Source: a virus (lineage: Duplodnaviria; Heunggongvirae; Uroviricota; Caudoviricetes). From it: DNA of 41,462 nucleotides. The stretch lies in IMG/VR virus record IMGVR_UViG_2778261298_000002, positions 1-41,462 of that record. One strand, given 5' to 3'. This document shows, piece after piece, positions 28,692 through 34,130 of the stretch; the stretch's first letter is position 1; each line of letters starts with the position of its first letter. The notes under the pieces are model-generated. The model did not search any database and was not told the DNA's origin. It saw only the letters and a program-made list of their open reading frames with translations. Position numbers and translations under genes: made by a program.

Positions 28692-29152
28692 TCTTCACCC
28701 GATGCAGCGCGCTTGCTGCTTTTCCGTAAGCACCGCTCACGACGCGCCAGAAAATTGTTTCGCTCTTGCTGGGAGTGGCTTTCACGGAATGCCGCCATCC
28801 ACACCGTTGCAGCACGACGGTATAAGCCCCTGGACTCCAGTTCTTCCGCCTGGCGGGTCAGGCACAAAATCTCCCGCGGGTCGTTAGTGCCGACATAGAA
28901 ATTGCGCACAGGTCTGGTTTCACGAACTGGTTGCGGTTCCGCCTCCTGCGCTCTCTCAGTCAGGCGCGGGAAATGTCTGCGTGTATCCCCTTCACAACGG
29001 TGAGCCACACGACCACTCTGACGTAACTTGCTTGCTGACTGCAGAACGCGCTGCCGTGAGTAACCTGCAAAAGCATCCGCAATGTCTCCGGAAGTACACC
29101 CCGGATGGGCTTCAATGAATTTCTGAACTTCATTCAAAAGACTCATGATCAC
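28658..29152 (-). CDS. Hypothetical regulator (possibly ANR/PerC-like)
   Basis: 164 aa downstream of the replication gene; family assignment is a weak recollection. Confidence 0.35.
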   Translation of the reverse strand: MIMSLLNEVQKFIEAHPGCTSGDIADAFAGYSRQRVLQSASKLRQSGRVAHRCEGDTRRHFPRLTERAQEAEPQPVRETRPVRNFYVGTNDPREILCLTRQAEELESRGLYRRAATVWMAAFRESHSQQERNNFLARRERCLRKSSKRAASGEEWYLSGNYVGA

Positions 29153-30090
29153 CCCCTGAATCCTGCCGGGATCTGGCTGTAGTCCACGTTGTCGTAACTG
29201 GCTTTGAAGTACGGGTCTTCGCGTTTTTCGGTGTACGTGCTGACGGACGGCGATAAGCGCAGGGAAAGCTCATCCCATTTTTCCCGCAACTTCGACGGGC
29301 TGAGCACGTTACGGCACCAGAACGGATCGCGGCTGACGCGGCTGTACATCTCGCAGATTTGTTTGTGAGTACGACCATCCTGCACACACATCAGGCGAAT
29401 TTCGTTTGCCCAGGCTGTCCAGTTCGGTTCTTTGGGACGAACCACCTCGCCGTCACATTCGGCAGCCTGCTCGTACAGGGCGATGATTTTTTTCCAGAGC
29501 CACTGTGCGCAGGTCAAATCATCCTGCGTTCCCCACTGGCGCTTTTTAGGGCTGAATACAACCGCATCAGGATGGCGAGTTAAAAAATCCTGTTCATCCG
29601 TCTGCGTGTCCGGTTGCGAAGCGTCCGGACGAGAAGGTTTTTTATCTGACGGATCATGTTTTGATTTTACTGACGGATCCCCGCCAGATTCTGACGGGTG
29701 AAAACCCGCTTTTTTGCCAGATTTCGACGCATCAAATTTTGACGGGTCAGATTTTGATGCGTCAGATTTTGACGGGTCAGAATCTGACAGTTGAGAAAAT
29801 GCCGCTGCCTGAAGCTTCGCAACGTTAAGCTGATAAACATTCGACGCATTGCGGTTACCCTGGCGACGCGCCTTACGCGTTAACCAGCCTTCTGCTTCCA
29901 GCCGTGCGATAGCCGTTCTGACGGTACTCATCCCCGCGCCAATCTGGCGGGCAATGGTTTCAATTGATGGCCAGCACACACCTTCGTCATTACTGAAATC
30001 AGCCAGGCGGGCCATAATTGCCACGCTGGATAATTTCATGCCTGATGCAGCGCAACCATCCCATACATAGCCGGTTAATTTAGTGCTCAT
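29149..30090 (-). CDS. Replication initiation protein (O-like, N-terminal winged HTH) with internal iterons
   Basis: 313 aa; N-terminal wHTH (..WPSIETIARQIGAGMSTVRTAIARLEAEGWL..); central pentapeptide repeats (SKSDA/SKSDP/SKFDA) encoded by tandem DNA repeats. Confidence 0.6.
   Translation of the reverse strand: MSTKLTGYVWDGCAASGMKLSSVAIMARLADFSNDEGVCWPSIETIARQIGAGMSTVRTAIARLEAEGWLTRKARRQGNRNASNVYQLNVAKLQAAAFSQLSDSDPSKSDASKSDPSKFDASKSGKKAGFHPSESGGDPSVKSKHDPSDKKPSRPDASQPDTQTDEQDFLTRHPDAVVFSPKKRQWGTQDDLTCAQWLWKKIIALYEQAAECDGEVVRPKEPNWTAWANEIRLMCVQDGRTHKQICEMYSRVSRDPFWCRNVLSPSKLREKWDELSLRLSPSVSTYTEKREDPYFKASYDNVDYSQIPAGFRG
29650..29795. repeat. Iteron array (putative replication origin) inside the replication gene
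   Basis: At least 5 tandem 15-bp units (tcagattttgacggg / tcagattttgatgcg / tcaaattttgacggg) plus degenerate copies upstream. Confidence 0.55.
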
Positions 30091-30438
30091 GACCGACCTC
30101 TATTTCCCTGAATTTACGACGAAACTGTTCGAGCGGGCTGAAGCACTCATGCTCATAGCCTTCGCGGAGGTAGATAACTCGTTGTGTTTCCGGCTCCCAA
30201 CGAATGACTCTGACGGGCACTCCGTAGTGATCTTTGAACCAGCGGTTAACTTGTCGCAAAGGACTGTCTCCTTCTGCCGGTTGAAATCACCCACAGCCCA
30301 CTCAGCAAAGCTGTGGGTTACAATTTCCCTGTCACCTGGTACATTAACTGCATAGCAATACTCCACCTTCGCTTTTCCACCCGGTACAGGAAGCGCAATC
30401 AGTTGCGAGCGACGGTAGTGTGTTGTTAAACTGTTCAT
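30080..30438 (-). pseudogene. Hypothetical early gene, apparent frameshift (or sequencing error)
   Basis: N-terminal 50 aa ([51 protein letters not shown]) in one frame; protein-like C-terminus (..[53 protein letters not shown]) in another, ending in a stop that overlaps the replication gene ATG. Confidence 0.4.
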
Positions 30439-31019
30439 GCGTTAGTTTCTCCACAGTCACGACACGCCACGGCGCCCGGAGCTGCACACTCGCGGGCGTC
30501 ATTACTTTCTGAAATGCAAAAGATTTTGTAGACCAGTGCTGCATGCTCCTGCAGCTTCGAAATTGAGAGATACAGCTCGTCGTTAATTGCTGTCTTCTCA
30601 TGCGGTTCCACCACACCGTCTTCGATTGCCGAACGAATCTGTCTGGAATAACTGCCAATCTGTTCAATGACTTCCAGCAGGCGCTTGTTAATATCGGCGT
30701 TGTCCACATCCTCGACGTCAGGAAGAGACACAAAGACGCCATTTGCAGACTGCGCCACAGCGTCAGCAATGAAGTGAGTTCCACCAGCACGTTGCAAAAC
30801 CATTGCCCATCCCAGCGGGAAAATCTGATCGCCATCGGCACGAAGGCGGTTAAATAATGCGTTCTCTGTTACATCCAGCCAGTCAGCAGCTTCAGCGTAA
30901 CCACCCGGCAACGCCGCGATAGTTTTTCTGACAGCTTTCACGTACCACTCAGGCTGTTTTTCTACTTTCCAGTGATGCTTACCCACGGCTATCTCCTTAA
31001 AACTGTGGTTACTTTCCAT
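30435..31019 (-). CDS. Early regulatory protein (YdaT/CII-like, uncertain)
   Basis: 194 aa directly downstream of the cro-like gene. Confidence 0.4.
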
Positions 31020-31257
31020 CTGATAAGTCTTTAATCTTTTGAAAAATATCTGGACGTAATTTTTCTTTTGATACGCCAGTGGTCATTTCAATAAATATCG
31101 AGAGTTTTGCAGGGGGACGCTTTTCTCTGTTCAACCAGTTCCAGACATGTTGTTGCTTTACTAAACGACCACTGCTGGCTGTGAGCTTCCGAGCCAATTC
31201 TGATTGACCACCAGCCAGAGCGATTGCCTCTGATAAGGCTAATTGCTCAGGTGTCAT
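31009..31257 (-). CDS. Cro-like HTH regulator (YdaS-like)
   Basis: 82 aa; HTH (SQSELARKLTASSGRLVKQQHVWNWL); divergent from the CI-like repressor. Confidence 0.65.
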   Translation of the reverse strand: MTPEQLALSEAIALAGGQSELARKLTASSGRLVKQQHVWNWLNREKRPPAKLSIFIEMTTGVSKEKLRPDIFQKIKDLSDGK

Positions 31258-31394
31258 AGCTTTCTCCTATCTGTAAGTAGTAAAGTTGTTGATAACTTCG
31301 ATTATACAACTACAACAACTTTCATCACAACTTTTAGATGTTGGAAAGCTAAAACATAAAGTTGTAACCTCAATAAAAACGAGGGGGATATGTT
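31258..31394. promoter_or_regulatory. Immunity operator/promoter region (OR-like) between cro-like and cI-like genes
   Basis: Repeated half-sites AAGTTGT/ACAACTT; minus-strand promoter TTGTGA-18-TATAAT (rc of 31325-31330 and 31301-31306) toward cro; plus-strand TTGATA at 31289-31294. Confidence 0.6.
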
Positions 31395-32081
31395 GTGAAA
31401 ACATTGGCAGAAAGACTAAAAAGCGAAAGAGAAAAAGCAGGAATGAGTCAGGCGCAACTAGCTGAAAAAATTGGGCTTTCACAACAATCCGTAGCGAAAA
31501 TCGAGAATGGAGAAACTCAACAGCCTCGGAAAATTAAAGAGATTGCTAAAGTGTTAGGGGTTTCTCAAAAGTGGTTGCAATTGGGCATTGAGGATAACGC
31601 GTCTTTCCCAGACCTTGTTGTAAAGGAGGCTGAAAGTACAGCATTAGATCCTGACATTTTTGCAAACATTCCAGTCCTAGATGTCGAGTTATCAGCGGGT
31701 AATGGATGTTTGGCTGAAATAGTTGAATCAACTGTAGACTGGTTCCCGCTAAGAAGGATTGATTTAAGAAAAGCTGGTGTATGTGTCTCCAATGCAAAGA
31801 TCGTAAAAATTTGGGGCAATAGTTTACTACCTGTACTTAACAATGGAGATTTTGTTGCTGTTGATGTTTCCCAAACGGTTCCTATTCGTGATGGGGATCT
31901 TTATGCCATACGTGATGGCGTATTACTTAGAGTTAAAATATTGATCAATTTACCTGACGGTGGTCTGATTCTAAGAAGTTTCAATAAAGATGAGTATCCA
32001 GATGAAATACTCACCTTCGAAGATAGGCGTTCAAGAATTCACGTTATAGGTAGAGTATTCTGGTCATCGCGCACTTGGTAA
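31395..32081 (+). CDS. CI-like repressor (HTH XRE domain plus S24 LexA-like peptidase domain), GTG start
   Basis: 228 aa; N-terminal HTH (MSQAQLAEKIGLSQQSVAKIENGE); C-terminal S24-like domain. Confidence 0.8.
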   Translation: MKTLAERLKSEREKAGMSQAQLAEKIGLSQQSVAKIENGETQQPRKIKEIAKVLGVSQKWLQLGIEDNASFPDLVVKEAESTALDPDIFANIPVLDVELSAGNGCLAEIVESTVDWFPLRRIDLRKAGVCVSNAKIVKIWGNSLLPVLNNGDFVAVDVSQTVPIRDGDLYAIRDGVLLRVKILINLPDGGLILRSFNKDEYPDEILTFEDRRSRIHVIGRVFWSSRTW

Positions 32082-32267
32082 TGCATCAAAAAACCTTCCT
32101 TCAGAAATTTAGTTACCATTATTACCCGCCTTTTCAATCTTCCTCCCGTGATTTGAGAGTTTCCAATCACGGAAGGAAAGTGTCCCTTGTGTAATTAAAA
32201 GCGCATCGTCCATACAACCTCCTTTTTTGATAACCCTTGCCCTCATTTCACATCCGTCAAAACCACA

Positions 32268-32320
32268 TAAAGTTGTTGACAACAACCAAAACAACAACTA
32301 GATTACAACTTAAAGATGTT
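32268..32320. promoter_or_regulatory. Second operator/promoter cluster (OL/PL-like) driving the early-left operon
   Basis: aaagttgttgacaacaaccaaaacaacaactagattacaacttaaagatgttg repeats the OR half-sites; plus-strand TTGACA (32276-32281)-17 bp-TAGATT (32299-32304). Confidence 0.55.
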
Positions 32321-32396
32321 GCAGTAACGAACAGGCAGGACGCCCACGAAGTAGCCGCCGGTGGCGTATGAATGACCGGATGATTCGTTAAATACT

Positions 32397-32618
32397 ATGT
32401 GTAAGAGAGCGCAAATGAACCGTTATTTCACATGCTCGTTTTGTGGCGCAAACGAGCTGCAGGCAAAAAAAATCATCGCCAAAGGCGGAAAAGATGAAGT
32501 TGCTATCTGCTCTGAGTGCGTAGTCTTGTGTGTCGGGGCATTAATCAATATCAGCACAACTATTCAGTTCACACCAAATGAGAATGCGCCTTTAGATGCG
32601 CGGAAATCTGGAGGTTAA
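32397..32618 (+). CDS. Small protein with ClpX-type C4 zinc finger (ClpX N-domain mimic)
   Basis: 73 aa; YFTCSFCGANELQAKKIIAKGGKDEVAICSECVVLC parallels ClpX [33 protein letters not shown]. Confidence 0.65.
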   Translation: MCKRAQMNRYFTCSFCGANELQAKKIIAKGGKDEVAICSECVVLCVGALINISTTIQFTPNENAPLDARKSGG

Positions 32619-32668
32619 AGAACAAAATGAAAGTCCAGATTTTAAACAATAACTGTGAAGTCGTTTGG
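32606..32668. repeat. 63-bp direct repeat, copy 1 (RBS plus first 14 codons MKVQILNN...; truncated ORF here)
   Basis: Near-identical to 33234-33296; here the ORF stops after 15 codons (MKVQILNNNCEVVWA*). Confidence 0.8.
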
Positions 32669-32677
32669 GCGTAAAAC

Positions 32678-32884
32678 ATGACCGCGCGTAGACCAAGGGA
32701 GGAAAAAGTGGGAATAGTTAGAAATCAAGCAGATATATTGAAAATCAGCTCTGAATTGCTTGGAGTTTTGAAAAGTGAGCTCACCGCACATGGCATCGAG
32801 CCCACTGACGAAAATTTAAGTTGGGTTTTGTCGATTATTCAACAATCACTCAAGCCCAGCCTCAGCAAACTTTTTATCGAGTAG
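32678..32884 (+). CDS. Hypothetical small protein (68 aa; alternative GTG start at 32708)
   Basis: ORF with RBS GGGAGG before the GTG; 3' end overlaps the convergent minus-strand ORF. Confidence 0.4.
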   Translation: MTARRPREEKVGIVRNQADILKISSELLGVLKSELTAHGIEPTDENLSWVLSIIQQSLKPSLSKLFIE

Positions 32885-33037
32885 TGCTTCGAACTTATCG
32901 TAAAGCTTGCTTATGTCGTCTATCGGGTTTTCTGACGTACTGTAATTTTTATCTGATGTCATGGCAGCAGTCTGATATGCAGTGTGAGTCTTAACAGATA
33001 GTTGGAATAAATAAAGAATTTTTTCTTCTTTGGTCAT
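32846..33037 (-). CDS. Hypothetical small protein (63 aa from the ATG with a good RBS)
   Basis: MTKEEKILYLFQLSVKTH...; RBS aggaaa; 91-bp repeat lies about 35 bp upstream. Confidence 0.45.
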   Translation of the reverse strand: MTKEEKILYLFQLSVKTHTAYQTAAMTSDKNYSTSENPIDDISKLYDKFEALLDKKFAEAGLE

Positions 33038-33071
33038 AACTATTTCCTTCTTGGCTATATGAAAACACCAA

Positions 33072-33162
33072 GATACCACCGAGCCTGAAGTGGTGAAAAG
33101 ACAGGCACATAACAGCTAAGTATTTTCAACCAGAGAGAATCCTTAGCGTTGTGGTGAATGCG
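33072..33162. repeat. 91-bp direct repeat, copy 1 (upstream of minus-strand small gene)
   Basis: gataccaccgagcctgaagtggtgaaaagacaggcacataacagctaagtattttcaaccagagagaatccttagcgttgtggtgaatgcg; identical copy at 33727-33817. Confidence 0.85.
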
Positions 33163-33233
33163 CAGGCTGATGCGCGAAAGACATTGCAGCTATTGCGGAA
33201 AAGAGCTGTTCGGCGGGGCCATTAAACGCCCGT

Positions 33234-33296
33234 ATCTGGAGGTTAAAGAACAAAATGAAAGTCCAGATTTTAAACAATAGTGGTGAAGTCGTTTGG
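33234..33296. repeat. 63-bp direct repeat, copy 2 (start of the full-length MKVQILNN ORF)
   Basis: Matches 32606-32668. Confidence 0.8.
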
Positions 33297-33530
33297 TCAT
33301 ACGACATAGCCGCTCCTGTAGATCAGAGCGGCGATAGCTGGACCAATGGGAAACATCAGATTATGGCTGGAGTTGTGTTCTCTTTACGCCGTGCTTTGGA
33401 ACAGGCTGAAGTATTTCCATCAGACCCTGAATGGAAATGGCCTTTTTCTATTTGTCCAAATTCGGAGAGCACATTTCAGAAAATTGGTCAGAAAGTCGCA
33501 CTCGAAGAGCATCAGCCAACTGTTTCCTGA
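33255..33530 (+). CDS. Hypothetical small protein (91 aa)
   Basis: MKVQILNNSGEVVWSYDIAAPV...; RBS GGAGG; 3' end overlaps the convergent ORF. Confidence 0.5.
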   Translation: MKVQILNNSGEVVWSYDIAAPVDQSGDSWTNGKHQIMAGVVFSLRRALEQAEVFPSDPEWKWPFSICPNSESTFQKIGQKVALEEHQPTVS

Positions 33531-33693: not shown

Positions 33694-33726
33694 TTGATTT
33701 TCCTTTTATGTATACGGGCTTAAAAG

Positions 33727-33817
33727 GATACCACCGAGCCTGAAGTGGTGAAAAGACAGGCACATAACAGCTAAGTATTTTCAACCAGAGAGAATCCTTA
33801 GCGTTGTGGTGAATGCG
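33727..33817. repeat. 91-bp direct repeat, copy 2
   Basis: Identical to 33072-33162. Confidence 0.85.
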
Positions 33818-33947
33818 GCTCAGCGCACGCGGGTTAAGGTTGAGGCTGACAGTCGACCTTCTGTGGATACCCACCCGCCTGGTGTGCAACCTTCGCCAGG
33901 CACCGGGAGGCACCCGGCACCACAACTTTATGCTGTGTGTAGTCCTC

Positions 33948-33993
33948 GCGGTACCAGTTTGTACACTTGCTTCCGGCTGGTACCGCTCTTTTT
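33948..33993 (+). terminator. Terminator-like hairpin (10-bp stem gcggtaccag/ctggtaccgc plus T-run) in a GC-rich structured leader
   Basis: Perfect 10-bp inverted repeat with a 19-nt loop, followed by tcttttt. Confidence 0.4.
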
Positions 33994-34130
33994 ACAAAAC
34001 AGAGAAGAGCATCACCGGACGACGGGCTCATAACCCAATCCATCCGGGCGGCTGCCACCGCAGGTGTTCTTCTCTGTTTTGTGGAGAAACCAACCGACCT
34101 TGCAGGGTCGATATGATGAGGAGCAGCAAA

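Follow-up and report, generated by a model that had tools for sequence, protein, structure and literature searches.

The window, that is, the whole 41,462-nt stretch of DNA that was analyzed, belongs to the lambdoid prophages of SfV/SfII/CPS-53 type. It is an E. coli prophage, and the 471 bp around the gene discussed here (32230-32700) match the chromosome of E. coli K-15KW01 at 99.8%. In the immunity region, the leftward genes lie on the minus strand and the rightward genes on the plus strand. The minus strand carries a λO-type replication initiator (29149-30090), homologous to λ O with E=7e-26 over the C-terminal two thirds, together with a cII-like gene (30435-31019) and a cro-like gene (31009-31257). 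The initiator contains a repetitive linker, SDPSKSDASKSDPSKFDASKS, and its N-terminus, MSTKL, presumably resembles the ClpX-recognition motifs at the N-termini of λ O and Dps reported by Flynn et al. 2003. On the plus strand, a cI-type repressor (31395..32081) is recognized by the Pfam profiles HTH_3 (1.2e-15) and Peptidase_S24 (9.5e-14), as well as by PHROG 4, transcriptional repressor (1.1e-53). The repressor gene is the upstream same-strand neighbor of a small gene for a stand-alone ClpX-type zinc-binding domain, referred to below as the zinc-finger gene.

A PL-like sigma-70 promoter, TTGACA-17 nt-TAGATT, is located at 32276..32304 (+) and matches the consensus at 10 of 12 positions. It is embedded in operator-like repeats (32265-32321), and the same repeats (D5, D6, D7, and D11) recur in the PR/PRM region at 31281-31365. 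This arrangement on the two flanks of cI is the layout expected of OL/PL versus OR/PR. The identification of the promoter as PL is well supported, and transcription would start at about position 32311. An inverted repeat lies between the cI stop codon and PL (32140-32178), with 17-nt arms that are 88% complementary, a 5-nt loop, and no T-run; it could be a hairpin at the 3' end of cI, or a site bound by a protein. The ORF list contains no coding ORF between the promoter and the zinc-finger gene, in agreement with the first-pass annotation, which had placed the gene directly behind a PL-like promoter. The PL leader of ~100 nt is nevertheless not empty, as a conserved structured RNA occupies positions 32322-32392.

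The open reading frame at 32397..32618 (+) is present and its translation is as previously given. It had been read as a protein of 73 aa, a length that probably has to be shortened. Judging from the sequence, translation probably starts at the ATG at 32415 rather than at 32397, which gives a protein of 67 aa (MNRYF..., 32415..32618). This start is likely because a Shine-Dalgarno-like AAGAGAG (32403..32409, +) can be read 5 nt upstream of it, because the database homologues, including P0001 and P0002, are all called from the equivalent Met and begin with MN(R/S/N)Y, and because the alternative ATG at 32397, situated 8 nt after the structured leader RNA, has no Shine-Dalgarno sequence. In the Salmonella homologues, AGGAG is found at the same place before the equivalent Met. 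Residue numbers below refer to the 67-aa form unless indicated otherwise.

The protein is a homologue, in sequence and in predicted fold, of the zinc-binding domain at the ClpX N-terminus without the ATPase body. The C4 pattern of the ClpX N-domain, recognized earlier from the letters alone, is borne out by several comparisons. The Pfam profile PF06689 (zf-C4_ClpX) matches residues 12-46 of the 73-aa form with 41.3 bits and E=1.4e-10, above the gathering cutoff of 27, and precomputed PF06689 matches are found on nearly all homologues. A phmmer search against the PDB returned the E. coli ClpX zinc-binding domain (2ds5/1ovx) as the top match, with E=2.5e-4, and the alignment to ClpX runs through CSFCG, K+IA, and ICxECVxLC. 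The cysteine ligands C7, C10, C32, and C35 (codons at 32433, 32442, 32508, and 32517) are invariant across 36 aligned sequences, with a spacing of 2/21/2 compared to 2/18/2 in ClpX. The zinc-binding domain comprises residues 4-51 (32424..32567, +), with a β-hairpin and a helix at residues 33-51.

An AlphaFold2 model was built as a single-chain prediction from the alignment of the 36 sequences. Residues 1-51 are predicted with confidence (block pLDDT 77-93 over residues 1-50), while the last 16 residues are disordered. The predicted fold is a treble clef, consisting of a zinc knuckle, the β-hairpin, and the C-terminal helix. Foldseek places the model on 2ds5/2ds6/2ds8 with an rmsd of 1.4-1.6 Å and a target TM of 0.81-0.85, so that structure prediction, proposed in the first-pass annotation as a check, yields a match to the E. 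coli ClpX N-domain. The C-terminal tail (residues 52-67, 32568..32615, +) has pLDDT values below 50 and is not conserved. Homologue tails are unrelated to one another and range from 5 to 75 residues, and conservation is confined to residues 1 to about 50. We expect the protein to bind zinc, and it probably dimerizes.

The absence of an AAA+ body, also claimed earlier, follows from the length of 67-73 aa and from the NCBIfam ClpX equivalogs, which score 25.8 and 22.7 bits against cutoffs of 359 and 371 and match only over their N-terminal ~40 positions. Neither an AAA+ module nor the ClpP-docking IGF loop is found in the 67-aa protein. Other resources are less informative about function. The PHROG matches of the protein, 5259 and 20296, are both labeled "unknown function", no PADLOC defense-system profile matches at E<=0.1, and BFVD contains only uncharacterized phage relatives together with a 65-aa protein of a Pseudomonas phage that is labeled "Clp protease". 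An Elf1-like zinc ribbon, suggested by a JGI label on homologue P0001, was rejected, the Pfam match being 13.7 bits against a threshold of 29.8.

The domain call itself is already known, since RefSeq names the family "ClpX C4-type zinc finger protein". Our literature search found no functional or experimental study of any phage-encoded ClpX zinc-binding domain. The close family comprises 15 clusters at E<1e-10 among 1.8 billion representatives, and the index of the sequence collection lists one Salmonella allele in >13,000 blocks. The family is thus small in clusters yet common. In all contexts examined, namely, E. coli 1217KP and ECOR29, the Salmonella phages 118970_sal3 and F1055, and Salmonella and Citrobacter genomes, the gene comes first after the cI-type repressor or after cI and one inserted gene. 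This promoter-proximal position is constant with at least 5 different cI alleles in prophages of three genera (E. coli, Salmonella, and Citrobacter). Conversely, SfV and SfII have the leader but not the zinc-finger gene. Among the E. coli, Salmonella, and Citrobacter alleles, dN is 0.17-0.28 and far below dS, with saturated synonymous sites, which indicates a real gene under purifying selection. Some homologues (P0004, P0007, and P0008) are frameshifted or fused to other frames.

A recent capture from host clpX is not supported. The phage protein is only ~37% identical to E. coli ClpX, which points to an old lineage, and its nearest relatives outside the family are metagenomic multidomain zinc-finger proteins rather than enterobacterial ClpX. 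Many small proteins in metagenomes consist solely of ClpX-type zinc-binding domains, two or four in tandem (P0026, P0030, P0054, P0122, P0126, and others), and one metagenomic protein of 2505 aa contains 22 stretches matching this domain. These tandem proteins are an uncharacterized family outside ClpX.

The leader RNA (32322..32392, +) spans 71 nt between PL and the zinc-finger gene and begins ~15 nt after the inferred PL start. Our covariance model R1 matches it with 90.4 bits and E=1.9e-27, as a single copy in the window. Two helices, P1 (32326-32331 / 32384-32389) and P2 (32358-32362 / 32375-32379), covary strongly. Over 48 distinct sequences, 94.7% of the cells are paired, compared to 26-44% in slid controls, compensatory changes occur in 10 of the 11 P1 and P2 pairs, and the covariation score is 0.50 compared to 0.04-0.12 in the slid controls. 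The presence of G·U pairs identifies the plus strand as the RNA strand. A possible H-type pseudoknot (GCY/RGC, 32354-32356 with 32363-32365) has weak support, and a small hairpin at 32334-32344 is neither supported nor refuted because it is invariant across the leader RNAs. Single-sequence folding gave no signal (z=0.28). The RNA also contains long invariant single-stranded stretches, such as GCCCACGAAGUAGC.

This RNA is widespread. Of 5426 complete E. coli genomes, 1415 (about a quarter) carry it. It is also found in 53 phage records across Enterobacterales and Aeromonas, with many temperate phages, and in the early regions of virulent phages (T5-like Providencia phages and one Drulisvirus), and it is near-identical among heteroimmune phages despite differing flanking DNA. 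None of the phage records inspected annotates it as an RNA, an Rfam search gave no match at E<=1, and an exact-sequence text search returned unrelated matches only. With filters off, R1 found nothing above 8.4 bits in HK022, so the leader is not put by homology. A role as a cis-acting antitermination or transcript-stabilizing element is a reasonable guess. An obligate partnership between the RNA and the zinc-finger gene was rejected. The RNA mostly occurs without the gene (~87% of loci), and the gene is found without the RNA in Citrobacter. The two are independent modules.

The slot behind the leader RNA was surveyed by a simple first-ORF call at the 110 loci carrying the RNA. The first genes fall into ~37 sequence clusters and include the zinc-finger gene in 14 loci, from which we conclude that the slot is a cargo site and the gene an accessory one. 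In mEp237, Kil is annotated in the record behind the same leader RNA. The cargo of this slot appears to be small immediate-early effectors.

The DNA downstream of the gene has been rearranged. An 80-nt direct repeat, with copies at 32606..32685 (+) and 33234-33313 that are 89% identical, covers in its first copy the boundary at which the 3' end of the zinc-finger gene meets the beginning of the following gene (MKVQILNN..., PHROG 3195), whose first copy is truncated in the window. ECOR29 shows the undisrupted order, the zinc-finger gene followed by the PHROG-3195 gene. The 80-nt repeats flank an SfII-like two-gene insert, composed of a 68-aa gene (32678-32884, +) and a 77-aa gene (32846-33079, -), and a second pair of direct repeats, seen by eye only (~33076-33155 and ~33724-33815), likewise brackets this insert. 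The repeat pairs and the truncated PHROG-3195 copy are a recombination scar. A 93-nt segment (33141-33233) shares 96.8% identity with the plp (lipoprotein) region in phage P1 and in the P1-like phage RCS47, an unexpected mosaic link. Further along the early-left operon, positions 33773-33995 (+) match the sRNA STnc100 in Rfam, with 49.1 bits against a gathering threshold of 47. The STnc100-like sequence ends in a GC-rich hairpin and a T-run (~33950-33995) that resemble an intrinsic terminator.

The comparison with ClpX at the residues that contact ligands gives a mixed picture. The adaptor and degron surface of the ClpX N-domain involves L12, L13, H23, K27, I29, and A30, of which K27, I29, and A30 shift upon ligand binding (PMC8808172). 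K27, I29, and A30 correspond to identical residues, K19, I21, and A22, in the phage protein, and K19 and A22 are near-invariant across the phage family. At the positions of L12 and L13, the phage protein has Y4 and F5 (or Y5), which keep the hydrophobic character. In contrast, His23, which ClpX needs to recognize the MqsA degron and which has been implicated in binding of the SspB tail (PMC8808172), is replaced by L15, a position that varies in the family (L/M/R/Q). Tyr35 of ClpX is replaced by Ala, and the β-hairpin loop has a three-residue insertion relative to ClpX. The phage protein also lacks the linker, its C-terminal helix is longer and more hydrophobic, and its disordered tail is variable. 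The helix positions equivalent to the ClpX dimer interface (V36, L38, A42, and L43) are still hydrophobic. On this alignment, the ligand strand appears to survive, and specificity may have been lost. Partner specificity may have diverged also because of the low overall identity and because the nearest non-family relatives are metagenomic rather than enterobacterial ClpX.

We propose, with somewhat less than even confidence, that the phage protein interferes in trans with those functions of ClpXP that depend on the ClpX N-domain; this appears to be the best single explanation. In this proposal, a small, free-standing, probably dimeric zinc-binding paralogue of the ClpX recognition domain would be made at once upon PL derepression, at infection or induction. 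It could act by occupying the docking peptides of adaptors and N-domain-dependent substrates, with XB-like motifs (SspB and RssB), N-domain degrons as in λ O, MuA, UmuD, and MqsA, and phage proteins as candidates. Alternatively, ClpX itself could be its partner, through pairing or docking. By either route, the affected proteins would be selectively stabilized and ClpXP would not be blocked generally. Plausible beneficiaries would be the phage λO-type initiator (29149-30090), host σS, and labile antitoxins, whose loss would trigger abortive infection. The binding partners and the effect on proteolysis are deduced here rather than observed. A more specific form of the proposal, which we advance more tentatively still, is that the diverged free recognition domain would serve as an immediate-early decoy or anti-adaptor, selectively switching off N-domain-dependent ClpXP proteolysis at the start of the lytic program and sparing σS or ssrA substrates brought by adaptors as well as λO-type initiators and labile antitoxins.

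SspB, RssB, λ O, MuA, UmuD', and the MqsA degron all dock on the ClpX N-domain (PMC8808172, PMC5415555), and a peptide from the SspB tail is a competitor of MqsA for this site (PMC8808172). The free ClpX zinc-binding domain dimerizes and, when added in trans at 5-20 µM, inhibits RssB-dependent σS degradation by 0.6 µM ClpXP in vitro (PMC7226468, Fig. 1d). λ O is a ClpXP substrate (PMC10584840), and λ RexB, encoded in the cI-PL neighborhood, has an O-stabilizing function (bioRxiv 10.1101/2021.04.19.439022). Interference in trans is rated best because of this free-domain precedent, the kept ligand strand, the λ O-homologous initiator, the degradation of λ O by ClpXP, and the position of RexB in the same neighborhood. 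The homology to ClpX, the predicted fold, the strong constraint at the protein level, and the constant promoter-proximal placement across cI alleles and genera also speak for it. Against it stand the loss of His23 and its variability in the family, the Tyr35 replacement, the enlarged hairpin loop, and the low identity, with the divergence in partner specificity that this may entail. Moreover, in vitro inhibition by the free domain needed a roughly 10-30-fold excess. Finally, SfII has the same O protein and no zinc-finger gene, and the gene is therefore not needed for replication.

The non-conservation of His23 also fits a different and rather doubtful reading, in which the treble-clef dimer is a scaffold re-targeted away from ClpXP, toward a sigma factor or RNA polymerase subunit, or a cell-division or defense protein. 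The protein would then be a host-takeover or anti-defense effector sharing only its ancestry with ClpX. Such a change of target has a parallel in B. subtilis CsfB, an anti-sigma factor with the same dimeric treble-clef fold and no link to ClpX (PMC5890618). The hypervariable slot, with its many unrelated small first ORFs and Kil in mEp237, is consistent with it, as is the abundance in metagenomes of stand-alone and tandem (2x, 4x) zinc-finger-domain proteins without an assigned function. However, the phage protein differs from CsfB in that its sequence is clearly homologous to ClpX; it also keeps the exposed K-x-I-A ligand strand, and PADLOC gave no match. A positive role in specificity is distinctly less probable. 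Here, the protein would form a heterodimer with ClpX or dock on it and redirect or enhance ClpXP or the ClpX unfoldase, for example, on repressor fragments after induction. In S. aureus, ClpX binds the CI N-terminal fragment and is needed to complete prophage induction (PMC10584840), the gene adjoins cI and is expressed at derepression, and the helix residues equivalent to the dimer interface are hydrophobic. The number of cI alleles that accompany the gene, at least 5, argues against a repressor-specific partner, and there is no tether beyond the zinc-binding domain, the tail being non-conserved.

The location of the gene had led to a comparison with λ N, and the position indeed matches. Moreover, the gene lies directly downstream of the structured leader RNA in 12 of the 13 loci examined, and one homologue carries an "Elf1" label in one source. 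These features would suit a protein that, like N or by binding nucleic acid in some other way, regulates early-left transcription, perhaps with the leader RNA as its target. We consider such a role very improbable, and a functional parallel with N is not supported. The protein has no arginine-rich motif (2 Arg in 67 aa), there is no boxA/boxB or nut site, and the Elf1 score (13.7 versus 29.8 bits) is far too low for that label. About 87% of the RNA loci lack the gene, including those of SfV, SfII, and the T5-like and Drulisvirus phages, the Citrobacter gene occurs without the RNA, and the slot is occupied by ~37 different first-ORF clusters. The least probable of all the readings is a neutral or decaying passenger without function in this prophage. 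The local recombination scar, with its 80-nt duplication and truncated downstream gene, and the frameshifted or fused homologues P0004, P0007, and P0008 would be compatible with decay. Conversely, the reading frame is intact, dN reaches only 0.17-0.28 across genera with synonymous sites saturated, and a single Salmonella allele fills >13,000 collection blocks.

If interference in trans is correct, the protein would be the first viral inhibitor to mimic a protease's own substrate-docking module, and its function would add a new variant to the known ways in which phages interfere with host AAA+ proteases. It would also offer a natural tool to separate N-domain-dependent from pore-dependent ClpXP substrates. 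As a decoy, it would represent a new principle in phage-host proteolysis, the copying of a recognition domain rather than the blocking of an active site, and it would provide a genetically encoded inhibitor selective for the adaptor-dependent part of ClpXP degradation. It would further suggest how phages stabilize short-lived replication and decision proteins or restrain toxin-antitoxin defenses. If the protein is not a decoy, the family is still common, conserved, and uncharacterized among the immediate-early genes that Salmonella and E. coli prophages carry. The leader RNA is widespread and absent from Rfam, and it merits a study of its own in N-less phages, where it occupies the 5' end of early transcripts.

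Several phage proteins are known to modulate host proteases. T4 PinA and T7 Gp4.5 act on Lon, and λ cIII acts on FtsH. Together with λ RexB, these are small proteins of early or immunity regions that protect unstable proteins from host proteolysis, as is proposed here. However, none of them is related to the phage protein in sequence or fold, and none copies the recognition domain of a protease. The layout of the locus resembles that of λ N and the HK022 put locus, in that an element directly follows PL and an intrinsic terminator is situated further down the operon (33950-33995 in the window), whereas the protein itself has no features of N. In its architecture, the phage protein is similar to CsfB (Gin) of B. 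subtilis, a small stand-alone dimeric treble-clef zinc protein, the dimer being presumed in our case. CsfB shares only the fold, at ~20% identity (PMC5890618), whereas the phage protein is a homologue of ClpX at the Pfam level; the Gin family is absent from its Pfam matches at E<=1. The E. coli anti-adaptors IraP, IraM, and IraD would have the same outcome if RssB is the target, as they stabilize σS by keeping it from being delivered to the ClpX zinc-binding domain. They bind RssB via unrelated folds, whereas the phage protein would compete as a ClpX look-alike. A parallel in mechanism is the laboratory ClpX zinc-binding domain, which in its free form blocks RssB-mediated delivery to ClpXP in trans, as we propose for the phage protein (PMC7226468). 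That domain is a fragment of ClpX itself, whereas the phage protein is a diverged natural gene product with putative partners.
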